A stretch of 64,000 nt of DNA from a candidate division TA06 bacterium B3_TA06 (GTDB lineage: Bacteria > Hydrothermota > Tepidihabitantia > B3-TA06): contig NJBO01000003.1 in the NCBI GenBank assembly GCA_005223075.1, positions 81,555 through 145,554 of the forward strand. The letters are read 5' to 3'. Shown here piece by piece: positions 17,492 through 33,858 of this stretch (its first letter is position 1; the number at the start of each line of letters is the position of its first letter). The notes under the pieces were generated by a model. The model was not told where the DNA came from. It worked only from the letters and a program-made list of their open reading frames with translations, and did no database searches. A program made the position numbers and the translations under genes.

Positions 17492-18655
17492 ATGCCGAAA
17501 ACCACAAAAAAAACAAACAAGTATGCAACAGATTCGGAGTTCGTCCGCGATCTGGAGCATGACATCACTGCCTTCATAAAGGCCGGCGCTGAACAATCCG
17601 ATGTCGACGAAAAGTACAACGAACTCGCCCTTCGGTTGTTTGAGTACCAATACAACATGAACATACCTTACCAGAAGTACTGTGACAAATACGGCAAAAA
17701 ACCAGGCACCATAGATTCCTGGGAAGAGATTCCCGTGGTTACCACTTCCGCATTCAAGGAAGTGACATTCAGGACCTTTCCGGAGGAAGAAACTGTAATG
17801 CTCATGACCAGTAGCGGAACAGACGATCCTGAAAAGCGCTCAAAGGTCTATCTTAATAAGATGGGTCTCGAGTTATTCGACTTGTCCACCCAAACCGCAA
17901 TAGAACTTGGATTGTATGGTTCCCCGGATGAGAAGTTTCACGCATTGTTGCTCGGTCCCGATCCCGAATTAACGCCCGAGGCATCTATAGTGGTACGCGG
18001 ACTAATACAAGTGGTTGAAGGGCATTATATCGGGAAGCCGGAATTCTTCATAAAGCCTGATGGGTTCGATTTCGCAGGCCTTGCCGAAAGACTCAGGCAG
18101 GCCGAAGAGACCGGTGAACCGGTGGTGATCGCTGGAGCCACGTTCGGACATATCCACTTCTTTGACTATTGCCAATCCCAGGGCATCTCCTTCAAGCTGC
18201 CCGAAGGCAGCCGCTGCTTTGACGGTGGAGGCTACAAAGGCAAAGCAAGACAGATCACCAGAGAAGAGTACTGTCAACTGGCTAAAAAGGTACTTGACGT
18301 ACCGTCACATCTTCTTGTAAATTGCTACGGCATGGTCGAGGTACCCTTGCCTTTCATGGAAAACGTATTCTACAACCACAGAAAAGGCATAAAGGAACCA
18401 CGCTACAAGATGATTCCTCACTGGGGGAAAACCCTGGTTGTTGATCCCGACACCCTGAAGCCTTTGCCCAAGGGCGAACGAGGATTGCTTCGTCATTACT
18501 GTTTGGCTAATCTTGTGACCGCGCAGGCTATTCAAACGGATGATGTAGGTGTCGCAATCGGTTCCGGCTTCGAAATCTTGGGCCGTGCAAAAGGCTCCGA
18601 GGCGCGCGGCTGTTCCATTGCCATTGACGAACTCCTCAGCGCACAAAAAAAATAA
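17492..18655 (+). CDS. LuxE-family acyl-protein synthetase (fatty acid-activating, PaaK/LuxE adenylating superfamily), copy 1
   Basis: From memory it aligns with Vibrio LuxE: N-terminal F.YQ.N..Y..YC...G..P, central TSSGT, C-terminal GRAKGSEARGCSIAIDEL with the acylated Cys position. Size is 387 aa. Confidence 0.8.
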   Translation: MPKTTKKTNKYATDSEFVRDLEHDITAFIKAGAEQSDVDEKYNELALRLFEYQYNMNIPYQKYCDKYGKKPGTIDSWEEIPVVTTSAFKEVTFRTFPEEETVMLMTSSGTDDPEKRSKVYLNKMGLELFDLSTQTAIELGLYGSPDEKFHALLLGPDPELTPEASIVVRGLIQVVEGHYIGKPEFFIKPDGFDFAGLAERLRQAEETGEPVVIAGATFGHIHFFDYCQSQGISFKLPEGSRCFDGGGYKGKARQITREEYCQLAKKVLDVPSHLLVNCYGMVEVPLPFMENVFYNHRKGIKEPRYKMIPHWGKTLVVDPDTLKPLPKGERGLLRHYCLANLVTAQAIQTDDVGVAIGSGFEILGRAKGSEARGCSIAIDELLSAQKK

Positions 18656-18666
18656 TGGAGGACAGG

Positions 18667-18960
18667 ATGTCAGGGGCAGAAACATCTACCCCGGTGTTCT
18701 TCCTGTGTGCCCTGGATGAGACCCACGTTTAGAACCCTTTTGCCCTTGAGGTCCAAACCCGCGGGGATCGCGTCAGGAGAGATTCGCTGGCACCCACATC
18801 CTCCCTAGTTCTCCAATCATCGCAGAACCAAAACCAGCAAGGGAAAACTACCTATCCCATCTTGCGATTTATGAGTTTGTGGAGAGGATAGACAAAACCG
18901 TAGCCTTCTGGCGTGATCCCCGCTTTCCCTTTGCTCCTGTTCATGTCTTACTCCTTCAGA
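18667..18960 (+). pseudogene. 5' remnant of a LuxC-like gene (tandem-duplication junction)
   Basis: MSGAETSTPVFF... and YEFVERIDKTVAFWRDPRFPF match the LuxC N-terminus at 21050 (MRETSIPAFF..., YEIIETIDKAVALWRDPDYPL). The frame is broken in between. It is truncated where the second STAS-like gene begins. Confidence 0.55.
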
Positions 18961-18969
18961 GCGGGCTAA

Positions 18970-19362
18970 TTACTCTGATTCCTTCTCTTTTTCAGCCTTC
19001 AGCCAAGCAAGGGCCTCTTCTTCGGTTGCGAAGAACTTGGTATCCTTCGCCCTTCCAAGTGCCGTCGCTGCGATTCTGCCAAACATCCGCACGGCTGGTT
19101 TCGCGCCGCAGATCGCTATCTTGTAGAAATCAAGACTCGCAGCCCCATCCTTTAGTAATTTACGGCCTTCCTTCTCGGGTATAATCTGGCCACGTTCGGA
19201 AGAGATCTTGACTGATAGATAACGCCGTTGCTCCGGGGTGAATCCCTTTGCAGAGTTAATGAAACTTCCTACGTCTTCCGTCTCGAACTTATCAAAGATC
19301 TCCAGCCACAGTACCCCGTTCTCCTCGTCGTACCAGAGTTTGGATTTGTCTTTCTCTTTCAT
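18970..19362 (-). CDS. SpoIIAA-like/STAS (DUF3478-type) small protein, copy 2
   Basis: This 130-aa protein is a paralog of 16562-16960. It has the same C-terminal TEEEALAWLK motif. Confidence 0.6.
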   Translation of the reverse strand: MKEKDKSKLWYDEENGVLWLEIFDKFETEDVGSFINSAKGFTPEQRRYLSVKISSERGQIIPEKEGRKLLKDGAASLDFYKIAICGAKPAVRMFGRIAATALGRAKDTKFFATEEEALAWLKAEKEKESE

Positions 19363-19695
19363 TTTTCTCCTCCTTTTGGCGATTTAAGGGTTTCCTCGCG
19401 CAATAAAAGCGAGTCTCTTGCTTGCATCGAATCTGGTTTTAAGCCTGATTCAGTCACAGCAAGCATTACACTTCTCTATGCCCACACTACCCATACTTGT
19501 AAGCGGGGAATCTTTGGACATATTACTGTTTTTCTTTCCTTTGTCAAGTCCATTTGATTAGCTCACTCTATTAATGCCCGAACATCCCTAAATAATATTA
19601 TTTTATTACATTTATCTAAAGGAACCAACTAAATGGAACCATCTGTAGTCTTATTGGCTATCCATTTCTATTTGGAAAATGACCTAAATGTTCAC

Positions 19696-19723
19696 TTGAC
19701 ATATGCAATTTTTTGACTATAAT
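19696..19723 (+). promoter_or_regulatory. candidate sigma-70 promoter for LuxE-like gene copy 2
   Basis: TTGACA-16-TATAAT, as in copy 1. Confidence 0.5.
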
Positions 19724-19889
19724 CAATCAATGAATAAAAAGAGTCGTTCTTTAGAGATGAAGAACTGCTTCGCCCACAGCGGGTGTTTCAGCAAAGACTA
19801 ACGCAGGTGTTGCCGCTTCTAAAAGCCTGAAAACGTTAGCCGAAAACGCTTGATACATTAAAGTATCAAGTATTAAGAAGGAGGAACAA

Positions 19890-21041
19890 ATGCCGAAAAC
19901 AACAAAAAAAACAAAGAGGTATGCAGCCGATTCGGACTTCGTCCGCAATCTGGAACAGGACATCACAGCCTTCATAAAGGCAGGACGTGATCAAGCCGGC
20001 ACCGAGGAGCGCTTCAATGAACTGGCCCTTCTGTTGTTCGAGTACCATTATAACGCGAATGCGCCCTATCAGAAGTACTGCCAGAAAAGAGGAGTTGCCC
20101 CAGGCGAGATCCGCTCCTGGACACAGATCCCTGCGGTGCCCACAACCGCTTTCAAGGAGATCCCCTTATGCACCTTCCCACCGGAAAAGGCTGTGAAGGT
20201 CTTCACGAGCAGCGGGACCACCCAGCAGACCAAGCGCTCAACCCTTTATTTCGATGAAGCCGGGCTTCGCTTGCTTGAGCTGTCTCAGCAGACGGTGGTG
20301 ACTGAGACCATGTGTCGTGATTTCGACAAGGCTCGTCTTTTGCTCGCTGCTCCCCCACCAACTATGGCTCCCAATTTGGCGTTGACCAACTACCCGCTGC
20401 TCGCGCTTAAAGGCCGCCTGATTGGTGAGCCGGTGTATCTTATCGGCAAGGAAGGACTTGATTTCCCTGGATTGGTAGCGAACTTAAGAGAAGCCGAAGA
20501 TCCCCTGATTCTGACCGGAGCCACGTTCGCGTTCCTTCACTTCTTCGAGTACTCGAAATCCCAGAATATGTCGTTCCGGCTTCCCGAGAAAAGCGTTATA
20601 AACGACGGCGGAGGCTTCAAAGGGCAGGCGCGAGAGATACCCAGGGAAGAGTACTTCGAATTGGCCCGTCAGGTTCTCGGAATTCCACCGGAGCGCATCC
20701 TGAACGCCTACGGTTTGAGCGAGGTGGCCACGGGATTCAATGATAACGGATTGTACAACAAGACTAACGGCATAGATGGCCCACGTTACAAGATGATCCC
20801 GCACTGGGTTAAAGCGGTTGTGGTCGATCCGGATACGCTCAAACCCCTGCCCAAAGGCCAAACCGGCTTGCTGCGCTACCACTGCCTAACCAACTTTTCG
20901 AACGTGATGGCCGTGCAAAGCGACGATGTGGGTTATGCGGTCGAAGATGGCTTTGAGGTCGTAGGCAGAGCAAAAGGTGCTGAAGCACGCGGCTGCTCCA
21001 TTGCCATGGACGAGCTGATCAGTGCCCAAAAAATGAAGTAG
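19890..21041 (+). CDS. LuxE-family acyl-protein synthetase, copy 2
   Basis: It is a paralog of 17492-18655, roughly 55% identical by eye. The C-terminal Cys motif is retained (GRAKGAEARGCSIAMDEL). Confidence 0.8.
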   Translation: MPKTTKKTKRYAADSDFVRNLEQDITAFIKAGRDQAGTEERFNELALLLFEYHYNANAPYQKYCQKRGVAPGEIRSWTQIPAVPTTAFKEIPLCTFPPEKAVKVFTSSGTTQQTKRSTLYFDEAGLRLLELSQQTVVTETMCRDFDKARLLLAAPPPTMAPNLALTNYPLLALKGRLIGEPVYLIGKEGLDFPGLVANLREAEDPLILTGATFAFLHFFEYSKSQNMSFRLPEKSVINDGGGFKGQAREIPREEYFELARQVLGIPPERILNAYGLSEVATGFNDNGLYNKTNGIDGPRYKMIPHWVKAVVVDPDTLKPLPKGQTGLLRYHCLTNFSNVMAVQSDDVGYAVEDGFEVVGRAKGAEARGCSIAMDELISAQKMK

Positions 21042-21049
21042 CCGGCAAG

Positions 21050-22483
21050 ATGAGAGAAACATCAATCCCAGCGTTCTTCCTGCCCGAAGTTGCTGAGGCT
21101 GACCTTGGGGAGTTTACTACGCTTGAGTTCGGGCAAGGCCAGAACACGGTCAGGATGCATTCTCCCCTCCTTACACCTGCTTTGCTCTCCAAGATCATAG
21201 CGCAACTTAAAGAAGCGCGGGAGGAATACCTCGCCAAGCTCCCTGTCTATGAGATCATCGAAACCATAGATAAAGCCGTGGCACTTTGGCGCGATCCAGA
21301 CTACCCACTGCGTCGCAAGGCCGAAGCGCTACTTCCTCTCATCACCGGCTACTCCAGCGAGATGATTACCCAGACCCTGGACGAGATCGTACTCATGTTG
21401 CGGGGAGAAGACCTGAAGCTCCTTCTTGAAGAGGAGTTAGGCGACCCTCTGTTTCTGGATCAATTCAGGCCGCGGCCGAAAAGCACCGGGATGTGCAAGG
21501 TCTACGGGCCTCGTCTCACCACCGCCGTGTTCGCAGGCAACGTTCCAGGACTTCCTGTGGCAAACATCGTCTATGCGCTGCTCATGAAATCGGCGATCTT
21601 AGGCAAGTCATCCTCTGAGGAGCCTTTGTTCGGCGTTCTATTCGCACAAACTCTGGCTGAGATAGATCCTGAGCTGGCTCGCTCTGTTGCCATGGTTTGC
21701 TGGAAAGGCGGCGATGTGGAGATCGAACACCTGGCTTTTGGCTCCTCGGATGCTGTGGTTGTCTATGGCGGAGAGCATTCTGTAAACGAAGTCCGGAAGC
21801 GGGTTCCTTTCCGAACCCGCTTCATCGCCTACGGGCATAAACTCAGCTTCGGGGTCATAGGCCGCGAGCATCTAGCAGCGGACCGCGTCAGGCAGACGGC
21901 GGCCTGGGCAGCCGTAGACGCATCAGTCTTTGATCAGCAGGGGTGCCTGTCTCCTCACGTGTTCTACGTAGAAGAAGGCGGCCAGACCACGCCCAAGGAG
22001 TTTGCGAGGCTGTTGGCTAGCGAGATGGAGGCCTTTAACCAAAAGATCCCTCGCGGGAGGATCTCGCCTGACGAATCGGCACATATCAACCAGCTACGTG
22101 GCTCATACGAGTTCCGGGAGTTTGAAGACCAAGGTGTAGCACTGCATGCGAGCTCACGGGGTACGGACTGGACGGTTATCTACGAACGCGATCCGGCATT
22201 CGTGCCGTCGTGTCTGAATCGAACCATCCGCATCAAGCCGGTGAAAGACGTATCAGAAGTGGTTGGATTGATCGAACCCATAAAGGGCTACCTGCAGACG
22301 GTAGGCGCAGCTCTGCCACAAGAAAGGTTCTTATCCCTGGCGAATAAGATGGGCCAACTAGGGGCAGATCGCATCTGCCCTCTGGGCAAGATGACCGCTC
22401 CTTCCCTCACCTGGCATCACGACGGACGCTTCAACATACTCGATCTGCTCAGATGGACTGATATAGAACAAGGCTCAACATAA
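21050..22483 (+). CDS. LuxC-family acyl-CoA (acyl-protein) reductase, aldehyde-dehydrogenase-like
   Basis: The protein is 477 aa, the size of LuxC. It immediately follows LuxE. It has an NADPH-binding-like region (VFAGNVPGLP) and a conserved Cys (GCLSPH). Confidence 0.7.
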   Translation: MRETSIPAFFLPEVAEADLGEFTTLEFGQGQNTVRMHSPLLTPALLSKIIAQLKEAREEYLAKLPVYEIIETIDKAVALWRDPDYPLRRKAEALLPLITGYSSEMITQTLDEIVLMLRGEDLKLLLEEELGDPLFLDQFRPRPKSTGMCKVYGPRLTTAVFAGNVPGLPVANIVYALLMKSAILGKSSSEEPLFGVLFAQTLAEIDPELARSVAMVCWKGGDVEIEHLAFGSSDAVVVYGGEHSVNEVRKRVPFRTRFIAYGHKLSFGVIGREHLAADRVRQTAAWAAVDASVFDQQGCLSPHVFYVEEGGQTTPKEFARLLASEMEAFNQKIPRGRISPDESAHINQLRGSYEFREFEDQGVALHASSRGTDWTVIYERDPAFVPSCLNRTIRIKPVKDVSEVVGLIEPIKGYLQTVGAALPQERFLSLANKMGQLGADRICPLGKMTAPSLTWHHDGRFNILDLLRWTDIEQGST

Positions 22484-22517
22484 GCTGAGAACAAGAAAAA
22501 ACTGGGGGGCTAAACAC

Positions 22518-22560
22518 GTCCCCACGGGGTTGGAAACAACTCCGTGGGGACTTTGTTTTC
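22518..22560. terminator. rho-independent terminator (10-bp GC stem GTCCCCACGG/CCGTGGGGAC + T-run) between convergent luxC-like and SDR genes
   Basis: A perfect inverted repeat is followed by TTTGTTTTC. An A-run sits on the other side, so it may act in both directions. Confidence 0.6.
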
Positions 22561-22605
22561 TGGTTCACCTCCTTTAGGGTTTAGCTCACAGCTTGGTTGT
22601 TTTCT

Positions 22606-23526
22606 TCATGACGCCAGCCCTGTTAACTCCTCACTGATTTTCCACAGCCGCTGCCAAGCTTCTTGGTTGTAAGAGGCTTTGGACGAACGCTTGGGTTTTC
22701 GCTTGGAGAAATACTTTCCGGTGACGCCCTCCACCTCCGGCGAGGACGCCAGATAGATGCTGGTCAGCGCACCCTCCTCAGGGGGAATCGCCCATAAGAG
22801 GTTAAAACTCACCCACCTGACTATCCTAAGAGCACCCCTAACCTGATGCGCCACGTTGGTCTTCACAAAGCCAGGATTGAGGGCATTTACCGTGACCCCG
22901 GTGCCCGCCAGCCGCCGCGCGAGTTCGTAGCTGAACATGAGCAGGGCAAGCTTGGAGTGGGTATATGCTGGGATACCGAAGAATTTTTCCCTGGTTGGTA
23001 GTTCGTTAAGATTTAACCCCTTAACCCATGCGTGCATGAAGGAGGAAACATTGACTATGCGGGACGGAGCACTGGTCTTGAGGACATCAAGTAACAGGTG
23101 GGTCAACAAAAAAGGAGCGATATGGTTGACGGCAAAGAACATCTCGATACCGTCGGAGCTCTGGGCTCGTTCGGCAAGACCAATGCCAGCGTTGTTTATG
23201 AGCACGTCCAGGCGTTGATAGCGATCCTTAAACTCCTGGGCCAGTCGGCGAATCTGAGCCTGCGAGGAGAGATCGGCAAGCATCAAATCAACCAAATCGT
23301 TTCCGCTCTCCCTCTTGATCTCGAGCCTGGCTGCCTCGCCTCGTTCCTTGCTGCGGCAGGCCATAACTACGGTCGCGCCCATCTTTGCCAATCCCAGAGC
23401 GGTTTCCTTGCCTATACCTGAGTTAGCTCCTGTCACCAGGCAGACCTTGCCTTTCATTTCATTCATCTTAGCCTCCTTGGTCTTTAGACTTATGTCTTTA
23501 AAGTCTGCCATTGAAGTCGTTGACAT
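22606..23526 (-). CDS. short-chain dehydrogenase/reductase (SDR) family oxidoreductase
   Basis: TGANSGIG Rossmann motif, NNAG motif, and the catalytic YxxxK region. Confidence 0.85.
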   Translation of the reverse strand: MSTTSMADFKDISLKTKEAKMNEMKGKVCLVTGANSGIGKETALGLAKMGATVVMACRSKERGEAARLEIKRESGNDLVDLMLADLSSQAQIRRLAQEFKDRYQRLDVLINNAGIGLAERAQSSDGIEMFFAVNHIAPFLLTHLLLDVLKTSAPSRIVNVSSFMHAWVKGLNLNELPTREKFFGIPAYTHSKLALLMFSYELARRLAGTGVTVNALNPGFVKTNVAHQVRGALRIVRWVSFNLLWAIPPEEGALTSIYLASSPEVEGVTGKYFSKRKPKRSSKASYNQEAWQRLWKISEELTGLAS

Positions 23527-23789: not shown

Positions 23790-24362
23790 ATGAGAGTTTA
23801 TCAATGTGGTAAGCGTTGGTATGTCGAGGACTCATACAACCCGAAAAGGTACCGCCGGTCCGCGGGTCGGACTAAGCGGGAGGCTCTTTTAAAACTTGGC
23901 GAGATTGAACGCTACAAAGAAGTCTGGATAGAGAATGTAAAGTCTGCTTCCGTTAACCGTGAGTTGGCGTTACTAAGGCATATGCTCCGTAAGGCAATAG
24001 ATTGGGATTACCTGCGGAAAGAAAATCCTGCAAGCAGGGTGAAACAGTTCAAGGAACCCTCAGGACGGGTAAGATACCTCTCCTTTGAAGAAAGAGAGCA
24101 ATTACTTGAAGCGTGTAAGCGGACTGGTATCGAGGATTTCCATTGTCACAGCCTTAGACACACCTTTGCCTCTTATCGCGTTATGGCGGGTGTAGACATC
24201 CGAACGGTTCAGGTACTGATGGGACACAAGGACATCAAGATGACCATGCGGTATTCGCATCTTTCCAAGAGATACCTCAGAAAGGCGGTAAACCGGATGG
24301 TCACAAATTGGTCACAAGTCGAGGATGCACCCGTCGAGCAATCTCCCAAGTTACGGAGTTAA
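23790..24362 (+). pseudogene. degenerate tyrosine-recombinase (integrase) remnant lacking most of the catalytic core
   Basis: The N-terminus is integrase-like (RRSAGRTKREALLKLGEIE). Box II is present (HSLRHTFAS...LMGHKDIKMTMRYSHL). The protein is only 190 aa, and the Box I Arg region between LSFEERE and HSLRH is missing. Confidence 0.5.
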
Positions 24363-24370
24363 AGAAACTT

Positions 24371-24442
24371 GCCGACGTAGCTCAGCGGTAGAGCAACGCT
24401 TTCGTAAAGCGTAGGCCGGTGGTTCGAATCCACTCGTCGGCT
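24371..24442 (+). tRNA. tRNA-Thr (anticodon CGU)
   Basis: A manual cloverleaf fold gives a 7-bp acceptor stem, D and T arms (GGTTCGAATCC), and anticodon loop TTCGTAA. No CCA is encoded. Confidence 0.9.
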
Positions 24443-24757
24443 TTTTCAATCGTTACCCAGTAGGGCGCAACCCGTTGTAACACAAGCACTTACAAGGGAT
24501 ATAGGTATCCCTTTGGGCGGGTGCAAGGTTTACCCTATCACACCTGAAAAGTAGGCGTTTGGGTGCAAAAATGGCTAAGAACCCCTAAAATAACACACCT
24601 ACTGACACAGCCCAAAAGGTGCTCGGAGAAACACAGCCCAAACACACCGCCGTCAGTTTGGGCCGCTGCCCAGAACTCAAAAGGTTAGTGCAGTAGGTCT
24701 ATATCTTCTCAAGCCGCTCTCTGAATCCGTCTTTCAAATGTACACGGGGCAACCTCG

Positions 24758-24973
24758 TCATTTTACCCGAATGTAAGTGTATCCTTCCTTTTTTATGTTT
24801 TGATCCAAATACTGACCTTTTGAAGGAGCATTCATAAGACCATCATATAAGGCAAGTGGAACACCAAAGTATTGATAGATTCTACCCCCATGAAACTCCA
24901 CCTCTAAGACTTGAGTAGATCGGTTGTACCCTACGGATACAAGATTACTCGATTGAACTGGGATTCTCTTCAT
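24758..24973 (-). CDS. KTSC-domain protein (71 aa)
   Basis: It matches the KTSC consensus (SSNLVSVGYNRSTQVLEVEFHGGRIYQYFGVPLALYDGLMNAPSKGQY). Its RBS overlaps the stop of the upstream ATPase gene. Confidence 0.7.
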   Translation of the reverse strand: MKRIPVQSSNLVSVGYNRSTQVLEVEFHGGRIYQYFGVPLALYDGLMNAPSKGQYLDQNIKKEGYTYIRVK

Positions 24974-24982
24974 CTTGTCACC

Positions 24983-27475
24983 TCAAATTTTCAGATTACC
25001 ACACCGACACTGCTTGAGTTTCGCATTGTTGGGTGAGTATTTTTTGCAAGCTTCTGTATTACAACTTGGACAAACGAAAAGGGCCTTAAATTCATCTATA
25101 TCTCTAAGAACCGTTTCCACATCCCCTCTACTTAAAGTAGTTGATTGCATGTTCCGATGATGTGAACCTAAATTTGTCAGCAGTTGACTTGCTCTTAAAT
25201 CATCAAAAATTGCTTTCCCATCCTTTGAACGCAGAGACTGGTTCTCATTTATGTAACTCCGCAGACCATCTAACAACTCGCTTGCTTCTCTTTGATCATT
25301 CCTAGGGCCTACACGAAATTCAAGGCTTTTCACACCGAGTTTAGAGCATTTGTCTTTCAACAATTCTTCAATTAAAGTTCTACAACGATTCGCAGCCTCA
25401 TGTATATTATTTCTCTCCAATTGCCATTTGATTCTTTCGTCTAATGTAGCTGGTGACTCTATGACCTCAACCCCTCTTTCAATTGACCATTTTTTCAACC
25501 CACGAAAACGCCATTTACCTGTAGGTGACAAGGTTTTCTTCAACTCTTCAAACCAGAGATCATCGTGTGTAAAAAGCAGAATCTGAACATCAGAAAACTC
25601 ATCACGGAGTAACCTTGCCAAAGCAAACCTGTGGTTCGAATCAAAACTGCTAATAACGTCATCGAGTATAATGAAATTGCTTACTTTGTTGAAGTATCTA
25701 ATGAAGGCTAAGAACAAACAGATACCAAGACTATTCATGTGGGATTCGCTTAGAACCTTTCGCGGTGGTGATATTTCCAAGCCGTGAAACAGAAGCTTGA
25801 ACTCGACACCCCTAAGTTCTGTTTGAATAAGCTGTATTTGATCTATTTTTTCGTCCAAATGAAGACGAGCAAAAAATTTTTCAACGTCGGAAGATATCAC
25901 CGAGATCACGGCGTTAAGCCCTTCCTTTTCTCGATTTTCAAAATCTCGTAGTACATGCCACATTGATGATATTTGTTCCCTGAATTTCTCAATCTTTTGA
26001 TTCAACCTTTGGATCTTTATAAAATTATCGCGCAATGAGTCAAGCCTGGCGACATTCCTGTAAAAAATCTTTTCTTCCTCGGTATCAGATAGTTCATCCT
26101 TGAGCGCTGCTAACTTCCCTCGTGTCTTTTGAATAGCTTCACTTAAGACTCTTAGACTTTCATCATTCGGCACTCCTACTTCAGTTGGTTCAATAACCTT
26201 CTGCATATTGATTGTCAAATCGTTCCACGCATTAAGGCGGTTCAGCCAGTTAATTATCTGATTCAATTCGTCGGGCAAGGTAAGGAGCTTCTTGTTTTCT
26301 TCGCTCTCGAATTCCTGGATTCCATCCATAGATGAAGTTATACTTACCCTCAATTGTTTCACGCTATCAATAAGTTCCTTTTTCTCTTTTAACAATGCTT
26401 CGAGCCTAATTACTTCTTCTTCCACAGTTTTTTGGAGTTGCAACGTATCAAATTTACTCTTACATAGAGGGCACTTGTTTGGTGCACCCCACCCTTTACT
26501 CAAAATCTGTTGGGCCTTGGCATAAAGACCTTCCCATGCCGAAGCAGCCAACAATTCCGGTTTCGCAACAAGTTTGTTGTGTTTGCCGGCGATGGTCTTT
26601 AACTGATTACAAATTTCTTCGGGTGTGCGTATTTTCTCAATGGCCCTCTGTAAAACCTCAACCGCAAGGCGCTTTTTACCTTTGTCGGTTCTCAATGTTT
26701 GTTCATCTAGGGTGTTGGCTACTGCAATTAGAGACTCAAAATCCGTTATTGGTTGAGGATGCTTTAGTTCTGCTCTTATTTGTTCAGTCGAACTGTCTGT
26801 CAAAGTCAGTCCCCTTAATTCGAGATGCTTTAGTTCTGCTCTTATTTGTTCAGCATAACTGATAATATCCTGAATTTCAAAAGTGTCGCGACCAATAATC
26901 CGACCGATTTCTTCTTTGCTATTCTGCAACCTAGCTTCATTTTGGATTAGTTCCTTGTCATCTTTCAACGCATTGTATACCTTCAGCAGAATCTCTCTCA
27001 TCTCCGTTACAACCCTAAACCCTACAATTTCCTCTATATCTTCAAGCTTTTCACTTTTTGTCTTGTCAACGAATCTTCCTATCGTAGAATGTCTTAAAAT
27101 GAATGATTCTTTCGCGACCTCCTCTATAAACTTATTAAATTCCTCAGATTGATTCGAAGAATAATACCCCCCTTTCCTTTTCAACGTCTTAACGGAGCTT
27201 AAGTTCACATCATCAAATTCAAGCGTAACAGTTGCATCTTGACTATCGGGCAAAGCCTTATTGAAGTAATCCTCTCTACCGCAACCTTCCTTTCTAAGGT
27301 CTTCTATTTCGTCAGTAAAGAACCATTCAATCGCATCTGTAAAGCTACTTTTACCATCACCATTGTTGCCGTATAAAACGAGATTTGGTGCATTATTGGG
27401 GAATTCAAGCACAACAGGCTTTAGAATGCCTCTGAAACCCTCTATGGTTAATCTCTTTAGACTAACTTTATCCAT
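24983..27475 (-). CDS. Rad50/SbcC-like ABC ATPase with coiled-coil zinc hook (CPLC) and C-terminal ~200-aa extension ending in a Cys4 Zn-ribbon; candidate RloC/PrrC-like anticodon nuclease
   Basis: Walker A is GNNGDGKSS. The middle is a long coiled coil containing CPLCKSKF. Near the C-terminus are Walker B/D-loop (FIILDDVISSFD) and an H-loop (LLFTHDD). The extension has an R-x3-E motif (RTLIEEL), SHH, and CPSC...CRCG. It sits next to a restriction-modification gene. Confidence 0.55.
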   Translation of the reverse strand: MDKVSLKRLTIEGFRGILKPVVLEFPNNAPNLVLYGNNGDGKSSFTDAIEWFFTDEIEDLRKEGCGREDYFNKALPDSQDATVTLEFDDVNLSSVKTLKRKGGYYSSNQSEEFNKFIEEVAKESFILRHSTIGRFVDKTKSEKLEDIEEIVGFRVVTEMREILLKVYNALKDDKELIQNEARLQNSKEEIGRIIGRDTFEIQDIISYAEQIRAELKHLELRGLTLTDSSTEQIRAELKHPQPITDFESLIAVANTLDEQTLRTDKGKKRLAVEVLQRAIEKIRTPEEICNQLKTIAGKHNKLVAKPELLAASAWEGLYAKAQQILSKGWGAPNKCPLCKSKFDTLQLQKTVEEEVIRLEALLKEKKELIDSVKQLRVSITSSMDGIQEFESEENKKLLTLPDELNQIINWLNRLNAWNDLTINMQKVIEPTEVGVPNDESLRVLSEAIQKTRGKLAALKDELSDTEEEKIFYRNVARLDSLRDNFIKIQRLNQKIEKFREQISSMWHVLRDFENREKEGLNAVISVISSDVEKFFARLHLDEKIDQIQLIQTELRGVEFKLLFHGLEISPPRKVLSESHMNSLGICLFLAFIRYFNKVSNFIILDDVISSFDSNHRFALARLLRDEFSDVQILLFTHDDLWFEELKKTLSPTGKWRFRGLKKWSIERGVEVIESPATLDERIKWQLERNNIHEAANRCRTLIEELLKDKCSKLGVKSLEFRVGPRNDQREASELLDGLRSYINENQSLRSKDGKAIFDDLRASQLLTNLGSHHRNMQSTTLSRGDVETVLRDIDEFKALFVCPSCNTEACKKYSPNNAKLKQCRCGNLKI

Positions 27476-27713
27476 TGCCTGCCTCTCTCAATTCCTTCAA
27501 CCCATTAAGAATCTCTTCTTTGGTAAATCTACTGCTATAAAAAAGGGAACGTAAAAGACCCATAACATCGGCATCGATCCGCAAAATGTCAAGTTCTTTA
27601 AAGAACTCCGCAACTAATTCCTTGCCTGTTTTTATGTCGGAAGCCTTCTCTCGCTCTTGTTCGCCCATTCCTATTTTCGGCTGTTCTTTTGTCTCGCCTG
27701 AAGATTCGGTCAT
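27468..27713 (-). CDS. hypothetical small protein (81 aa) between RM gene and ATPase gene
   Basis: A plausible RBS precedes the ORF. It overlaps the start of the downstream ATPase by 8 bp. No recognisable motif was found. Confidence 0.4.
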   Translation of the reverse strand: MTESSGETKEQPKIGMGEQEREKASDIKTGKELVAEFFKELDILRIDADVMGLLRSLFYSSRFTKEEILNGLKELREAGNG

Positions 27714-27921: not shown

Positions 27922-30900
27922 CTATCCCTTGCAGGGATTTCCCTTTCCTTCAACGATCTCGATTTCCTCAGGGGTTAAGGCATAAAGCTTGTAGACAAGG
28001 CGGTCAATCTCGCGGTCAGTTTCGGCGATCTCAGTTACGACCGGCGTGAGTTTGTTTTTGTATTTATCAAAACCTTTTGAGAGGAGCTCGTAGTTCCTGG
28101 GTTCGCGGGTGTTGAAGGCAAGCTTGCGGTTCTTTGCGATAAGGTCGGCAAGGGCGTTGGCATCGTCAAGCTTCTCAAGGCCGCGGATGCGCTCCCTGCC
28201 CGAAAGCTCAGCGAGCTTTGCCCCTATAAGGTGCTCCAGCCAGCCGGAGTATTCTTTAACTATCTCCTGCTTGCGCTTGTGCAGGTCAAGCATAGCTTGT
28301 ACAAGCTCAACCATATCGTTGTGCATCTTCTTGTCTTCGGGCTTGGAGAAGTCGATTGTGCGGATGGGCATAGACTCTACTTCGTTTGTTCCCACGTTGT
28401 TATTCGTACTTGTGATCTTAAATCTCCACTGGAACAACTTTGAATTTAACAAACCCATTAAATAATAAAGATCGTACTCCGTCCTAACATTCAAAGTAAT
28501 GGAATTTGTAGAATCCGCAAAATAGGTCGGTGGCTTTATAATCATTGCAACGATTCGCCATTTTTCATCAACTCCCGTTATTCTTTGAGTTGCTATACGA
28601 CGCTTGAATACTTCTTCAGGAATAGAATTTCCATCCTCCAAAAATTTCTTCTCATCGAACCATTCCCTTTCACCTTGACTTAACACATCTTGGAAATAGT
28701 ATCTCCCAATTTCCACTCCTTTCAATAATCTAGACATACTGGAATCACTGGTAATGAACTTGCTATATATTGTTTGATTGATTTCTCCTCTTCTTACATC
28801 AAAAGTATCTTCTTCTGCTAATCTTACAATACCTTCGGTTAGGTACATTTTCCGACAAACCTCCCAGTTACTCTGGTCAACTAAAGGAATAGGAATATTA
28901 TTTGGATCGAGCAATACCAAATCATCAAATTTGATTAAAGCCTCACGACATTCATCTTCAAAGCTGTTTCCAGGAAACACCCGGATATGAATTTGAGTCA
29001 TTTTGGGTGATTGAGGTTCGTTCATACAAGTAACAATCGTTGTGGACAGTTTTGCATCCTTAAAAATTCTCCGTTTAGAATTATCTTTTTGCGGGAAACA
29101 ATCTGCTAATAATTCGCAGGTTGAAAGCATCAAATTACGTCGCGCTTTTGAGCAACTTATATCTGCAACCAAAGATAAAGGCACAATCATACCAAATCGA
29201 TCCCCTCGTTGTAAAAGCCCTAATGCTCTTACAATAAATAATCGGTACAGATTAAGCTTACCACCTAGCGCTGCCTCGTACAGAGGGATATTCTTTACAT
29301 AATCACCCAATTCTTTATGGGGGCTAGAGATTCCTTTCCTTTCCTTCTCAAGAACGTCATACGGCGGATTCCCTATCACCGCGTCGAAGCCGGGATTGGC
29401 AAGCGGCCTGCCGTGCTTATCGAAAAACACTTCTGGAAACTCAAGCTCCCAGTGGAAAAAGTGATGCTTGTTCCAGAGCTTAGTTGCTTTATCCACCCAC
29501 TTTTCGCGCTCCAGCGCGGCAAATGCCTTTTTATCGTCTTGCCTCAGCGCTTCCACAAGCCGCGAGTAGTCCTTCGGCTTGACCTCGTTCCCGAAGTAGG
29601 TGGAGACCCAGACGTCGGCGGCCTGGCGAAAAGGTTTCATCATCCCCCGCGCCTGCTTGAGCCGCTTTATCTTGTCATCTATCTGGTCAATGGTATCCGA
29701 AGGCTCGTCCTCAATTTGCTTATAATAGACTATCGTGCGTGCCGAGTAGTGTTCAACTATCTGCTGAAACAGCGAGCCGGTTTTCTCGCCCGGCAGGTTG
29801 CCAAGCTCTGCAACCTTTGCGCCGATAAGCGAATCTCCAGGACGCAGGTGATGGTCAAGGAAGGAAAGCGGCTTGTTCGCGGCCACGGTTGAAAGCCACA
29901 AGGAAAGCTTGGCAAGCTCCACAGCAAGCGGGTTCTTATCCACCCCGAAGATGCAGCGCTCTATAATCAAACGCTTTGCCTTGCCGATCTCGTCCTCCGT
30001 TTCCTCAATCTCCTTAACTCCCAGAAGCTTGGGGGCAAGGAAATCGGTTGCCTCAACCAGAAAGTGTCCCGAACCCATTGCCGGGTCGAGCACACGGAGC
30101 GAAAGGAGTTCCTTCTCTTTAATGTCCTTGGTCAGCGGTTCAAGGGTGTGCTCGACAATGTATTTCACGATGTAGTCCGGCGTGTAGTAAGAGCCTGTGG
30201 CCTTGCGGTCGCCCCGCTCTGTCACGGGGTAGTATTCCCCTTTCCCTACGCTGTCCGTAGTTTTGCTTATCTCCTCTTCTTTGCGTTCCCGCAAGGGCTT
30301 CCATTGCTCTTTCTTTCCCTTTTTTACCGCGACCATCGGCTCAGAGGCAACCTCAAGATGATTTTCTAAAAGCCCCTCGTATATGCTCCCAAGGTCCCTG
30401 ATTTTCAAGCTCGAATAGTCAATGAACTCCTTTTTTGGCGTAGTCTTTGTCTGGGGTCTGGATAAAAGGTCAATAACCTCGGCAAGCCAGCGGTCGCCTA
30501 TTTTGTACTTCTTGAGGAACTCGTGCTGATTGTCATCGAAGAGACCACCGTTATAAGGGGCAATACCCAGGTCTTTTTCCCCCTGGTCTATAAGTGTTGA
30601 AAGGGCAGATAGTTTGCCCCACAGCATAGGTATGCTGCCGCCGTAAGGCGGCCCGTCCTTCCTTGCGTATATCTCCTCCTTCATACTCTCCAGGCTGTAG
30701 TGTTGAAGGTAGCTTCTGTTAGAGATTGGCAGGAGCAACTTATCTTCGGCGTAGAGTATAAACAAGAGACGGTAGAGAAGAACAAAGCAGTTTTCGCGTA
30801 TAAGCTCCTTGTCGCGCACAGGCTCCAAGCGGTTTTCTTTAAACTCCACGAATCCCTGAGCGAGTATTCGAAGCGCCTTGTAAACGTTGTCCTTAAGCTC

Positions 30901-31647
30901 CGCGCCGACGGCTTCAGCGTAACGGACTGAGCCGTCAAGCACGTAGTCGAGAAATCGCGGGAATGCTTGACAGCGAAAGAACATGTAGAAATACTTAAAG
31001 GCTTCAAGTTGTTCATCACGGCTTACGCCTGCTGCAAAGAGGGGCCCGTCGGAGTTTATTAGGCTTACAAGATTAACCTCGTAGTAGCGGTCAAGGTGTT
31101 TGCTTTGTTCCCGCTCATACAAACGCCAGATTCGCCCGTTAGTGAGTATGCCCCAACGTACCTCGCTATAGAGAAGATACAGGTGCATTTGGTAGGCAGG
31201 GTTGCGGTACTCGAAATCAAACAGGTCGGGCTCGTAACGCGATGAAAGGTCTAATTTGCGATTCCAATGCTTGGCTTCGCAAAGACCTATTGCTTTGTTG
31301 AAAAGCTCCCATTCCTTGCCCTTTTCCGTAGAGGCTTTCTTTTTTGCAGATTCCGTGTCGAATAACGCATAATCGGGCCTTCTGATGCCTTCGGCGGTTT
31401 TCTCTCGCGGTTGAACAATGTAATGGTGACCGAGTATTTCGAGTATGGGCCTGATGAAGTCGTTTTCCAGTTGAGGTTCGCTTAAAGCGGGGAGTCTCGT
31501 TAAATTCTCCTTATAGAGCTTGGAGATACCTTCAAAGGCTTCTTCAATCCCTTCGTGATCCCGCCATTCTCTTTCTTCTGGTAGTATTTCTTCAAGGTAG
31601 TGGTTTGAGAAGAGGTCTTGATTGGTGTGTAAAGAATTGGTACCCAT
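27922..31647 (-). CDS. type IIG/IIL restriction-modification enzyme (fused PD-(D/E)xK nuclease + N6-adenine methyltransferase + target-recognition domain)
   Basis: The N-terminus has a PD...E-x-K motif (RRPDYALFD...GLCEAKHW). MTase motif I is VLDPAMGSGHFL and motif IV is GNPPYD. A C-terminal region of about 450 aa is the likely target-recognition domain. Confidence 0.8.
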   Translation of the reverse strand: MGTNSLHTNQDLFSNHYLEEILPEEREWRDHEGIEEAFEGISKLYKENLTRLPALSEPQLENDFIRPILEILGHHYIVQPREKTAEGIRRPDYALFDTESAKKKASTEKGKEWELFNKAIGLCEAKHWNRKLDLSSRYEPDLFDFEYRNPAYQMHLYLLYSEVRWGILTNGRIWRLYEREQSKHLDRYYEVNLVSLINSDGPLFAAGVSRDEQLEAFKYFYMFFRCQAFPRFLDYVLDGSVRYAEAVGAELKDNVYKALRILAQGFVEFKENRLEPVRDKELIRENCFVLLYRLLFILYAEDKLLLPISNRSYLQHYSLESMKEEIYARKDGPPYGGSIPMLWGKLSALSTLIDQGEKDLGIAPYNGGLFDDNQHEFLKKYKIGDRWLAEVIDLLSRPQTKTTPKKEFIDYSSLKIRDLGSIYEGLLENHLEVASEPMVAVKKGKKEQWKPLRERKEEEISKTTDSVGKGEYYPVTERGDRKATGSYYTPDYIVKYIVEHTLEPLTKDIKEKELLSLRVLDPAMGSGHFLVEATDFLAPKLLGVKEIEETEDEIGKAKRLIIERCIFGVDKNPLAVELAKLSLWLSTVAANKPLSFLDHHLRPGDSLIGAKVAELGNLPGEKTGSLFQQIVEHYSARTIVYYKQIEDEPSDTIDQIDDKIKRLKQARGMMKPFRQAADVWVSTYFGNEVKPKDYSRLVEALRQDDKKAFAALEREKWVDKATKLWNKHHFFHWELEFPEVFFDKHGRPLANPGFDAVIGNPPYDVLEKERKGISSPHKELGDYVKNIPLYEAALGGKLNLYRLFIVRALGLLQRGDRFGMIVPLSLVADISCSKARRNLMLSTCELLADCFPQKDNSKRRIFKDAKLSTTIVTCMNEPQSPKMTQIHIRVFPGNSFEDECREALIKFDDLVLLDPNNIPIPLVDQSNWEVCRKMYLTEGIVRLAEEDTFDVRRGEINQTIYSKFITSDSSMSRLLKGVEIGRYYFQDVLSQGEREWFDEKKFLEDGNSIPEEVFKRRIATQRITGVDEKWRIVAMIIKPPTYFADSTNSITLNVRTEYDLYYLMGLLNSKLFQWRFKITSTNNNVGTNEVESMPIRTIDFSKPEDKKMHNDMVELVQAMLDLHKRKQEIVKEYSGWLEHLIGAKLAELSGRERIRGLEKLDDANALADLIAKNRKLAFNTREPRNYELLSKGFDKYKNKLTPVVTEIAETDREIDRLVYKLYALTPEEIEIVEGKGNPCKG

Positions 31648-32246
31648 GTCTACCCCCAGTATATCTAACTATAAGAGTACGTCAAGCATATTCCCCTTCA
31701 CCCCGCAGCAGTGTAGCACTAACCAGCAGGCGCGAGGCAGGGCTGCTTGTCTAAAAAGCGTTCCAAGGCTCAGGCGAAAACCGACTTTAAGAAGATAGAG
31801 GACGAAGTTAAGAAAACAGAAGAGGAGCAAGCTAGACTTGTCAAAATACGCAAAGAACAAGACAAGGAAGCCTGCCAAGACTTTATTATTTGAGATGATT
31901 AGATTTAGGGAAATAAAAATGCCCATAAATAACTGCCAGGGGAAGGAATTATTAAGTTGCGCAATTGCGCCACTTAGTAAACGCAAGCGTATTTATTGGT
32001 TTATTGGAAAAAATGGGGGAAATGGTGGATAAATCTATAATTAAGGAATAAATACAGCAAACTCAAGGCGACACTACGTCTATTGCTATCCCGTATTGAT
32101 GATTCCCTTCCCGCTCTATAGCCTTTCTTTCCTTCCGCACTTCCGAGCCTGCTGATTGCGATTACTTCGTGGCATACGGTTTTAATGAAGAAGAATTAAA
32201 AAACGCTCAAACTTGATAAATACATCATAGACACCATGCGTGGAGC

Positions 32247-33578
32247 TTGCGTGGAAGGGGGCTTGACACGAAGGAAATAGGGACTATTCTTATATCAACA
32301 ATGGGAATTCAAATGAATAAAAGACAAATTTTTTTCATCATCGCGATAGCCGTTGGCATATTGTTGCTGATTCTCCTTGCGAAGAAAATGGGAACGGTTA
32401 CGGATCAGCCTGTACTGCGAAGGAAATCGAGACACAAAAGGACACGTGAGGAAAGAGAGATAGGGCGATTAAACGTTAAGTCCCTTGACATCCGGGCAGG
32501 TGCGGATAGAATACCCGTAGACGTGGGCATCTACCGTAGGGAAAACGGGATGCTCTACGTGCGTGTAATGATTGACGGAAAGCTTATCCGCCGGTCTCTG
32601 GAGACTCGAAAAGAGTCTGAGGCTCTATTGAAAATCCGGAGTGTAATTATGGCTGCCTTGGAAGGTCAAAAAGCAAAGGAAGTCCCGACGCTTGCAGAGT
32701 TCACTAAGACCTATCTAGCCTACAGTAAACGCCAGTACTCAAAAAGCACCTATGCAAGGAACCTTTGCAGGATGTCGAAGCTCATAGAGAACTTTGGCTC
32801 TATGAGGCTTGACCAGATAGACAAGCGGGCGATTAAACTCCACTCTCAGAAACGTCTGCAGGAAGTGTCCCCAGCATCGGTGAACTGTGAACGGTCGTTG
32901 CTAAGCTCCATAATGGAGTATGCCTGTGAGCTTGACTTCATTCAAGAGAATCCTGTCAGGAAAGTAAAGAAGCTTAGGGAATCCCCAGGCCGAGAACGCT
33001 ATCTGACCCCAGACGAAATCAAACGGCTCCTTGACGCCTGCAAGGCGCTAAGCGAACGGAAAGGCGTTGGACACAACCCAATCCTGTATGAGATTGTCTT
33101 AACCGCTATCCTCACCGGCTTACGTAAAGGTAATCTACAGAACCTGAAGTGGAGTCAAGTGGATTTTAAGACAGGGAATATCATTATCCCCGCCGGTGAA
33201 CACAAAAACCGCAAGCCGCTCTACTTCCCGATTAACCCCTACTTGCAGGAGATATTGTCAGGACTAAGGCATAACTACCCTTACGCTGAATACGTCTTCT
33301 GCAAGGCTGACGGCACTGAATATGGAGATTGGAAAAGGAGCTTTAACACCGCGTGCGAAACAGCCGGTTTAGAGGACGTTCGCTTCCACGACTTAAGGCA
33401 TACATGTGGAACCCTTCTGAACATGCTGGGTACGAACCAATATACTATCCGTGCGCTTATGGGACACCGCACATTAGCTGCGTCCAAGCGATACGTCCAC
33501 ACCCCGCCTGAAACAGTCAGAGAAGCGTCTAACGCTTTAGGAGACCGCCTGAGACGTATCCTAGACGGCAGCGACTAA
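32247..33578 (+). CDS. int: tyrosine-type site-specific integrase
   Basis: Catalytic motifs HDLRHTCGT, LMGHRTLAASKRYVH. The annotated N-terminus has a hydrophobic segment, so the true start may be an internal Met around 32388. Confidence 0.85.
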   Translation: MRGRGLDTKEIGTILISTMGIQMNKRQIFFIIAIAVGILLLILLAKKMGTVTDQPVLRRKSRHKRTREEREIGRLNVKSLDIRAGADRIPVDVGIYRRENGMLYVRVMIDGKLIRRSLETRKESEALLKIRSVIMAALEGQKAKEVPTLAEFTKTYLAYSKRQYSKSTYARNLCRMSKLIENFGSMRLDQIDKRAIKLHSQKRLQEVSPASVNCERSLLSSIMEYACELDFIQENPVRKVKKLRESPGRERYLTPDEIKRLLDACKALSERKGVGHNPILYEIVLTAILTGLRKGNLQNLKWSQVDFKTGNIIIPAGEHKNRKPLYFPINPYLQEILSGLRHNYPYAEYVFCKADGTEYGDWKRSFNTACETAGLEDVRFHDLRHTCGTLLNMLGTNQYTIRALMGHRTLAASKRYVHTPPETVREASNALGDRLRRILDGSD

Positions 33579-33649
33579 CACACCTATTGACACAGCCCCG
33601 ATTTGGGCAGATGTAAGTTAAGGAATTAGGTGGCTTTGCATTCCGGTAA

Positions 33650-33696
33650 TCGCTTTCGTAAAGCGTAGGCCGGTGGTTCGAATCCACTCGTCGGCT
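33650..33696 (+). repeat. partial tRNA-Thr 3' half (attR-type direct repeat)
   Basis: Over 47 nt it matches tRNA positions 26-72 exactly (acgctttcgtaaagcgtaggccggtggttcgaatccactcgtcggct). The upstream sequence does not match the tRNA 5' half. Confidence 0.75.
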
Positions 33697-33858
33697 TACA
33701 GCCGGGCCACAAGGCCCGGTTCACCTTTATTGGTGAACGGGAGTTACTTGACAATAAAGCCCAACCGCTCTATACTGCCAAACCGAAGAGCAAACCTTTT
33801 GGGTCGCTTGTAGCGTCGAATAACGGTACAGATTCTAACAATTGAGGAGGAGAAAAGA

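Follow-up and report, generated by a model that had tools for sequence, protein, structure and literature searches.

The stretch of DNA analysed here (the window) comprises 64,000 nucleotides (nt) of contig NJBO01000003.1 from candidate division TA06 bacterium B3_TA06. At positions 24983..27475 on its minus strand it contains an intact open reading frame (ORF) for a protein of 830 amino acids (aa), which combines an SMC/Rad50-like zinc-hook ABC ATPase with a predicted HEPN-like domain and a Cys4 zinc ribbon at the C-terminus. The protein sequence is identical to the NCBI entry CEE36_03250, annotated as 'hypothetical protein' of the same organism. The gene lies on an integrative island, in which the order of genes is: KTSC-domain protein, ATPase, small ORF, type IIG restriction-modification (R-M) enzyme, a 105-aa ORF and a tyrosine integrase. 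The evidence described below places the gene in a widespread, so far unnamed module of two to three genes, whose role is most likely in defence or abortive infection. The anatomy of the protein is close to certain, and our confidence in the function of the module is moderate.

The ATPase head and the zinc-hook coiled coil

The Pfam scan of the ATPase recognized only generic domains, such as SMC_N (E-value 1.1e-16) and AAA_23 (1.5e-11), with no match past residue 650, and the sequence and profile searches of the PDB led to the heads of SMC and Rad50 proteins. Sequence and conservation identify the Walker A motif GNNGDGKSS (aa 36–44; 27344..27370, minus strand), and a second block (aa 575–638; 25562..25753, minus strand) contains in sequence the ABC signature (LSESH), Walker B (ILDD), the D-loop (SSFD) and the H-loop (TH), with SESHMNSLG at residue 576, FIILDDVISSFD at 601 and LLFTHDD at 633. 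Among 202 full-length homologues there is no or almost no variation at K42, D605/D606 and H637. Since the motifs listed here and below are conserved across this set, they are not chance matches. An earlier, sequence-only reading of this DNA had ascribed Rad50/SbcC motifs to the 830-aa protein, and all nine motifs that it quoted are found in the intact ORF at the residues it gave.

The full-length AlphaFold2 model (alignment of 24 sequences, mean predicted local distance difference test score, pLDDT, 82.6) exhibits a split ABC head, whose C-terminal lobe extends to about residue 675 and is followed by a helical domain (678–798) and a small β-ribbon with four cysteines. The Foldseek search with this model returned Rad50 (7zr1) and SMC heads as the top matches and, lower down, the LmuB protein of the Lamassu system (9hqx_B, 9uxh_F). 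The secondary structure of the model comprises ascending helices (aa 154–326), a loop (327–343) with the CPLC motif, and descending helices (344–538), i.e. an antiparallel coiled-coil insert of about 385 aa (aa 154–538; 25862..27016, minus strand). The CPLC zinc hook (aa 335–338; 26462..26473, minus strand), identified by sequence, model and conservation, occupies the apex of the coiled coil, and C335, P336 and C338 are kept in 200–201 of the 202 homologues; the Pfam Rad50_zn_hook model gave no significant match to the ATPase (E-value 0.88). The coiled coil and hook proposed from sequence alone, for which structure prediction had been suggested as a check, are thus borne out by the up-loop-down arrangement of the helices with CPLC at its tip. 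The protein is an SMC/Rad50-superfamily ABC ATPase, with the head split by an antiparallel coiled coil carrying a CxxC hook. No Mre11/SbcD phosphoesterase, the partner of Rad50/SbcC-type proteins, was found in the island, nor did the clustered neighbours of 86 family loci include one.

The comparison with homologues revealed also an in-frame insertion of 66 nt, including a 38-nt duplication, in the ascending arm of the coiled coil (26758..26861, minus strand), with the sequence EQIRAELKH appearing twice, at aa 209 and 231. The insertion is strain-specific: it is present in no homologue, not even in the 83%-identical P0002, and corresponds to a low-confidence stretch of the AlphaFold2 model (aa 221–238).

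The C-terminal HEPN-like domain and zinc ribbon

The C-terminal extension consists of a helical domain (aa 678–798; 25082..25444, minus strand), assigned as HEPN-like from weak profile matches, the model and conservation, and a terminal Cys4 zinc ribbon (C802, C805, C823 and C825; 24998..25078, minus strand), evident from the sequence, the domain model and conservation. The sequence-only reading had already pointed out this extra domain with its RTLIEEL, SHH and Cys4 motifs; they are present (RTLIEEL at residue 699, SHH at 771, CPSC at 802 and CRCG at 823) and near invariant in the 202 homologues. The conserved set in the helical domain is N696, R699-x3-E703-x3-K707, N726/R729/E733, N768-x2-S771-H772 and D785. 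Its members are kept in 169 (N696), 194 (R699), 195 (E703), 176 (K707), 192 (N726), 194 (R729), 193 (E733), 177 (N768), 189 (S771), 198 (H772) and 172 (D785) of the homologues, and the ribbon cysteines in 183–197.

HEPN is the superfamily to which the PrrC and RloC anticodon nuclease domains belong (PMC3710099). DUF4145, a Pfam family of the HEPN clan (PMC3710099), weakly matched 8 of 17 family members (best E-value 0.0028, under the Pfam cut-off), and the AbiJ model of PADLOC matched 4 of the 17 (best E-value 2e-4). The domain model, built from an alignment of the last ~190 residues of 17 homologues (pLDDT 78), gave nothing significant in the Foldseek search against the PDB, and sequence and profile searches of the PDB with the C-terminal domain returned only zinc-ribbon noise, such as MCM; the assignment of the HEPN-like fold is therefore moderate, not strong. 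The Ex3[KR] motif, known from HEPN domains (PMC3710099), is present in the window protein in the form of E703-x3-K707 with a second conserved acidic residue. In place of the canonical HEPN motif Rx4-6H, the conserved element is R-x3-E...S-H, with a Glu-His spacing of 68 residues in the window protein.

Distribution of the family

About 50 full-length homologues at 42–47% identity were found in Dehalococcoidia, Bathyarchaeota, Omnitrophica and other groups, and a scan of one genome per species identified relatives at 25–31% identity in at least 168 species, including Flavobacterium psychrophilum, Roseovarius atlanticus, Pseudopedobacter, Planctomycetota and Nitrospirota. Typical homologues are about 807 aa long vs 830 aa in the window. 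A profile of the C-terminal domain retrieved 803 clusters (at 50% identity) among 1.84 billion proteins, and the domain was nearly always located at the C-terminus of proteins of about 800 aa. The module is thus hosted by bacteria and some archaea, on plasmids and islands; plasmid copies occur in Aliiroseovarius and Brucella anthropi and are annotated as 'AAA family ATPase' or 'hypothetical protein'. The scan of viral contigs revealed only distant ABC relatives. We found no paper describing this architecture, which may be mentioned in the ABC ATPase classification of Krishnan et al. (2020).

Partner genes

The neighbourhood of the ATPase gene was analysed in 86 non-redundant loci. A small gene, predicted to encode a helical protein (81 aa here, 58–80 aa elsewhere; 27468..27713, minus strand) and identified by profile and position, ends in an 8-nt overlap of its stop with the start of the window ATPase. 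According to a profile built from six copies, it lies directly upstream of the ATPase in 76 of the 86 loci, usually with an overlap of 4–47 nt; the ten loci with no match comprise six contig ends, two fragmented ATPase genes and two members of a divergent 764-aa branch. The small ORF is an almost obligatory partner of the ATPase. Its product corresponds to no consistent family in Pfam, PADLOC or NCBIfam, and in the PDB its profile weakly matched a Myb-type helix-turn-helix (HTH) domain (1irz, E-value 0.005).

The gene on the other side of the ATPase encodes a 71-aa KTSC-domain protein (24758..24973, minus strand; Pfam E-value 1.9e-24) and starts 9 nt past the ATPase stop. The KTSC domain is named after the C-termini of lysyl-tRNA synthetases. 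Genes of this kind flank the module in 12 of the 86 loci, as true KTSC genes in 3 (the window included) and as a related cluster of 72–77 aa in 9 (hhalign to KTSC, E-value 5e-5), which makes KTSC a recurrent accessory gene of the module. A promoter-like site (TTGACA-17-TATAGT, 27786-27758, minus strand; a consensus match only, at 11 of 12 positions) is found in the gap separating the small ORF from the R-M gene, and because of this site, the 8-nt overlap and the 9-nt gap, the small ORF, the ATPase and the KTSC gene are predicted to form one transcription unit apart from the R-M gene.

In other loci the module includes a further gene of about 152 codons (e.g. L044:8361-8816, L036:8306-8782 and, on the minus strand, L019:8312-8755), recognized by a pattern of invariant residues, G-x-Y...Y-x-G-M-S-E...R...H...E...N. 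Three members gave sub-threshold matches to the Pfam GIY-YIG family (E-value about 1e-3), and a profile search of the PDB did not confirm GIY-YIG; the pattern suggests a GIY-YIG-like nuclease. In alphaproteobacteria this gene is divergently oriented. In some members of the window's clade the same position is taken by an unannotated gene of 205–219 aa (L002:44-661, L011:7072-7731, L012:5083-5724), with no Pfam match except a weak one to Translin.

Association with restriction-modification genes

The type IIG R-M enzyme of the island (1241 aa; 27922..31647, minus strand) was identified by the Pfam families Eco57I, N6_Mtase and TaqI_C and by the PADLOC model REase_MTase_IIG (3e-70). Its nuclease motif (PD...EAK) is located at the N-terminus; the methyltransferase is a gamma-class N6-adenine enzyme with an NPPY motif, and specificity is assigned to a TaqI_C domain. 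The three neighbours named in the sequence-only reading, i.e. the KTSC protein, the 81-aa ORF and the fused type IIG gene, are hence confirmed by Pfam, PADLOC and coordinates, and the linkage to R-M genes that it had stressed recurs across the family. Among the other neighbours, R-M genes occur most often; they make up about 20 of the 77 genes immediately upstream and adjoin the module in about a quarter of loci. The 77 include 8 N6_N4 methyltransferases, 6 ResIII, 5 Eco57I-type enzymes, 1 C5 methyltransferase and 1 HsdR, as well as RloC, RhuM, HipA and HEPN proteins. Among the closest relatives, L001, L015 and L016 have the pair of small gene and ATPase enclosed by type III mod and res, and in L007 the pair follows a type IIG gene. 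At E-values below 1e-10, no homology was detected between the type IIG genes of different loci, that of the window included; the linkage therefore arose repeatedly, and a co-inherited block of R-M genes plus module was rejected.

Comparison with RloC and PrrC

The catalysis of PrrC and RloC rests on the triad Arg-X3-Glu-X36-52-His, often with a Ser ahead of the His; RloC of G. kaustophilus has 804 aa and the triad R692/E696/H737 (PMC2610378). RloC couples a DNA-dependent ATPase to a zinc-hook switch (PMC3458546). The suggestion that the window gene encodes a nuclease of the RloC/PrrC type stands as far as the architecture, the HEPN-like domain and the R-x3-E...S-H element are concerned. Like RloC, the window protein exhibits an ABC head interrupted by a coiled coil that bears a CxxC zinc hook, a C-terminal domain assignable to the HEPN superfamily with conserved Arg-x3-Glu...Ser-His, a length of about 800 aa, and a Walker B 'DD' followed by S-S-x-D-x-N-H, and both are sometimes linked to type III R-M genes and occur in defence islands. 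The membership in these families did not stand. The Pfam AAA_13 model matched the window protein with 16.1 bits vs the cut-off of 36 and only at profile positions 255–583 of 713, and the PADLOC PrrC match (E-value 2.1e-5) is limited to 65 residues of the ABC C-lobe (aa 586–650). The alignment of the family with 19 RloC sequences by hhalign was confined to the block from the signature to the H-loop, again the ABC C-lobe (probability 93%). The sequence-only reading had proposed a profile comparison of the C-terminus with RloC, and this yielded no supported similarity: hhalign produced no alignment of the C-terminal domain (probability 0.06–0.3%). When hhalign was restricted to the C-termini, N-x2-R-x3-E, [DE]-x-R, S-H and D fell in register with PNILRRFLE...R...FSH...D of RloC, but controls attained the score of 14.2 as well: 33 of 200 with shuffled columns, 90 of 200 with shuffled blocks, and the reversed profile. 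The resemblance of motifs is therefore a lead rather than evidence of homology. Thus, canonical membership in RloC/PrrC was rejected, and the comparison of profiles indicates that the window protein resembles RloC without being a member of either family.

Genuine RloC genes were found adjoining the family operon in three species (L025:6038-8329, L073:693-2954, L082:11680-13977). The second large ATPase encoded in these loci matches AAA_13 over nearly the full profile (E-value 2.6e-101, up to 3e-135; for L082, 340.9 bits over positions 3–698), exhibits a CLFC hook and RRFLE-x37-SH, and has homologues annotated by JGI and NCBI as 'wobble nucleotide-excising tRNase', which together identify it as a bona fide RloC. 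Whereas RloC is a single gene, the window family possesses the small partner and usually the GIY-YIG-like gene, and it adds a conserved N-[DE]-x-R-x3-E helix and the terminal zinc ribbon to the C-terminal domain. With PrrC it shares the combination of an ABC ATPase and a HEPN-type domain with the R-x3-E...H formula of the triad, and embedding inside an R-M operon, the latter only in the relatives L001, L015 and L016. PrrC, in contrast, has about 400 aa, lacks a coiled coil and hook, possesses a PrrC box and is always found inside type I hsd loci (EcoprrI being of type Ic); no hsd genes are present in the window, where a type IIG gene is located upstream of the module instead.

Comparison with Lamassu and other systems

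Among the models of the defence databases, the ATPase and coiled-coil half of the protein appears closest to Lamassu LmuB, with modest scores (68–96 bits). LmuB (PDLC03859) was the best PADLOC match (E-value 1.1e-27, aa 4–649, profile positions 3–592 of 611), and the match recurs in three distant family members. Both are SMC-like proteins with CxxC motifs, derived from SbcC/Rad50; some clades of LmuB carry CxxC hooks, and LmuC directly precedes LmuB (10.1101/2025.04.02.646746), just as a small gene immediately precedes the ATPase here, with an effector-type gene first in most relatives. The two differ in that the effector domain of the window family is fused to the C-terminus of the ATPase, the window locus lacks a separate effector gene, and the partners are far smaller and match no LmuA or LmuC model (PADLOC, window and relatives). 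An SMC-like system of the Lamassu, Septu or Gabija type had been named as an alternative in the sequence-only reading, and the ATPase half, with LmuB as its best match, agrees with the first of these.

Other known systems share parts of this design. RAZR (PD-T7-4) and further zinc-finger ribonucleases (RNases) with a DUF4145-type HEPN domain, e.g. HEC-08, resemble the window protein in that a Cys4 ribbon accompanies a divergent, DUF4145-like HEPN domain and the setting is one of defence; RAZR, in contrast, is a small, stand-alone protein with an N-terminal zinc ribbon, the canonical Arg/His pair and no ATPase, and no sequence match between the two was found. Fusions of ABC and HEPN are known as a class (PMC3710099). 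In two of them, APECO1_4465 and ERFG_01251 (Anantharaman et al. 2013), the ABC ATPase is N-terminal to HEPN and the genes are located in mobile islands; compared by description only, they differ in that no mention is made of a zinc ribbon or of a small partner gene, and they could be the same family. DISARM was rejected, as the strong PADLOC match of a neighbour to DrmMI reflects an Eco57I-like methyltransferase and DrmA, DrmB and DrmC genes are absent, and so was MADS, for which the mad3 and MAD2 matches were weak and far under the cut-off.

A predicted mechanism and the points against it

How could the domains work together? We propose that a dimer linked via the zinc hooks would survey DNA, aided by the small partner, and would respond to an infection-associated state of the DNA, such as DNA ends or replication intermediates, or to the failure of the neighbouring restriction enzyme. 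RloC and Lamassu offer precedents for such sensing; in the latter, LmuB and LmuC sense DNA ends and release an effector that acts as an oligomer (PMC12663957). The trigger would change the ATP-dependent engagement of the heads and bring together the HEPN domains, which directly follow the C-lobe of the head, to form an active RNase. HEPN RNases work as dimers that form a composite site (PMC13017515, PMC3710099), and the activation of HEPN by induced oligomerisation is a known principle (PMC13017515). Catalysis would proceed via R-x3-E...S-H, as in PrrC/RloC, and not via the canonical Rx4-6H, and cleavage of tRNA or another RNA would stop translation. For the substrate, tRNA is a reasonable guess, because the KTSC gene is recurrent and the triad is of the PrrC/RloC type. 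The protein would thus follow an RloC-like logic on an LmuB-like scaffold, with a zinc ribbon and an obligatory small partner that are described for neither, and the principle would not be categorically new. It is tempting to go further and to regard the module as an undescribed and widespread prokaryotic immune system, comprising a Rad50/LmuB-like ATPase with a fused HEPN RNase and ribbon and an adaptor of about 60 aa, with GIY-YIG-like and KTSC proteins as optional components, in which dimerisation of HEPN is driven by ATP and DNA; it would have arrived at an RloC-like solution independently, on a Lamassu-like scaffold, and would act as a second line behind type III and type IIG enzymes. This fuller proposal is tentative, and we place it somewhat short of an even chance.

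Several observations weigh against the module acting in this way. The position of the canonical Rx4-6H arginine (767) is occupied by T, G or A in the 202 homologues, with Arg in few members (e.g. RNLLSH in P0050), so that the domain could be non-catalytic, and the AlphaFold2 model of the catalytic loop at H772 is of low confidence. The GIY-YIG-like gene is found ahead of the small ORF in 65 of the 86 loci and is absent from the window's clade; it may be the real effector, missing in the window. The insertion of 22 aa unique to the window copy, confined to one arm of the coiled coil, might impair the protein. Furthermore, many loci have no R-M neighbour at all, and no named defence family was matched above threshold by the whole system.

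Alternative explanations

Could the protein be a divergent but true RloC/PrrC anticodon nuclease, i.e. a back-up tRNase that the adjacent R-M enzyme keeps silent until restriction is blocked? The domain order and length agree with those of G. kaustophilus RloC, the near-invariant R-x3-E...S-H fits the published triad with a Ser before the His, the CxxC hook and the Walker B 'DD' with SSxDxNH are common to AAA_13 proteins or RloC, the C-terminal motifs fall in register with those of RloC, and close relatives reside inside type III R-M operons. Nevertheless, AAA_13 separates the window protein, under the cut-off, from real RloC at 341 bits, the PrrC and hhalign matches do not extend beyond the C-lobe, the alignment of motifs does no better than its shuffled and reversed controls, and the Glu-His spacing of 68 residues departs from the 36–52 of the triad. 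The small partner and the zinc ribbon are foreign to RloC, and genuine RloC genes stand beside the family operon in three loci. On balance, we consider this explanation quite improbable. A placement within Lamassu (ABC-3C) has more in its favour, and still seems unlikely to us. It would make the ATPase an LmuB, the small protein a DNA-binding specificity factor in the role of LmuC and the fused HEPN domain the effector, with the GIY-YIG-like protein as a second effector in the position of LmuA in most relatives. The best PADLOC match, found in distant members as well, the LmuB structures returned by Foldseek and the hooks of some LmuB clades agree with it; the gene order of GIY-YIG-like, small and ATPase mirrors LmuA-LmuC-LmuB, and the weak Myb-type HTH match of the small protein recalls LmuC models, which resemble HTH proteins. 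The modest LmuB scores are, however, accompanied by matches to the SMC, Rad50 and mad3 profiles, and no LmuA or LmuC model recognizes any of the partners. The small protein has about 60 aa, whereas the residues of V. cholerae LmuC are numbered up to K149 (10.1101/2025.04.02.646746), and the GIY-YIG-like protein is too short for the C-terminal docking domain of LmuA. A nuclease fused to the C-terminus of LmuB is absent from the Lamassu types described in the literature examined, and the window island possesses no LmuA-like gene.

The remaining explanation takes the HEPN-like domain as non-catalytic, with an RNA- or nucleotide-binding or regulatory role, and the GIY-YIG-like partner as the protein that acts on DNA; the window copy would then be crippled or a sensor-only remnant. 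It draws on the missing canonical arginine, as HEPN domains without the catalytic motif can be non-catalytic (PMC3710099), on the high frequency of the GIY-YIG-like gene and on the insertion unique to the window gene. Against this, each of seven polar residues in the domain is retained by 87–98% of the 202 homologues, in a pattern resembling an active site, and the GIY-YIG assignment is itself sub-threshold, with no match in the PDB profile search. The clade that is free of the GIY-YIG-like gene retains full-length proteins of 42–47% identity in Dehalococcoidia, Bathyarchaeota, Omnitrophica and TA06, which argues for a function independent of that gene. We therefore give a non-catalytic domain as little credence as a divergent RloC, and prefer the defence module with a fused, predicted HEPN RNase.

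If this defence module is what we propose, it would stand as a separate branch among the SMC-like immune sensors (Wadjet, Lamassu and RloC) and provide the first Lamassu-type ATPase with its own RNase, joining DNA sensing as in Lamassu to the shutdown of translation as in PrrC/RloC. The idea of a back-up for failed restriction rests so far mainly on PrrC. The recurrent and independently assembled siting of the module by type III and type IIG enzymes would supply new test cases for it, and the control of the sensor could be tested via the small partner, which is strictly conserved, and the KTSC gene, which recurs. With relatives in cultivated hosts (Flavobacterium psychrophilum, Roseovarius atlanticus and plasmid 1 of Brucella anthropi), the module is a good candidate for a new defence system and lends itself to experiments.

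The integrative island and its surroundings

The island was delineated by a direct repeat. The gene for tRNA-Thr(CGT) (24371..24442, plus strand) is the integration target, with its 3' half forming the left attachment site attL (24397-24443, plus strand), and a perfect 47-nt copy of this half is found as attR at 33651..33697 (plus strand). The 9.25 kb between the repeats have a G+C content of 41–48% vs about 54%, and contain the gene for a tyrosine integrase of 443 aa (32247..33578, plus strand). The 47-nt repeats, the low G+C content and the integrase identify the whole arrangement as the cargo of an integrative island. The 105-aa ORF that separates the integrase gene from the type IIG gene (31669-31986, minus strand) has no Pfam family and contains a promoter-like site (31685-31658) a short way upstream of the type IIG start. 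Both ends of the island carry, just inside, a 23-nt repeat (96% identical; 24591-24613 and 33576-33598), whose right copy overlaps the stop of the integrase gene; the two copies may represent arm-type recombinase sites.

A truncated tyrosine integrase of 190 aa (23790-24362, plus strand) ends 9 nt before the tRNA-Thr gene. It aligns to aa 204–266 and 369–441 of the island integrase at 33–42% identity, lacks the central part of the catalytic domain and is probably the relic of a different element that used the same tRNA. Further to the left of the tRNA gene, a region with a G+C content of 47% (17492-23526) encodes two LuxE-like acyl-protein synthetases, a LuxC-like acyl-CoA reductase (E-value 1e-97) and a divergent short-chain dehydrogenase. 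To the right of attR, the segment 33859-39276 encodes a DUF1175/NlpC-P60 protein and a bacterial alpha-2-macroglobulin of 1534 aa.

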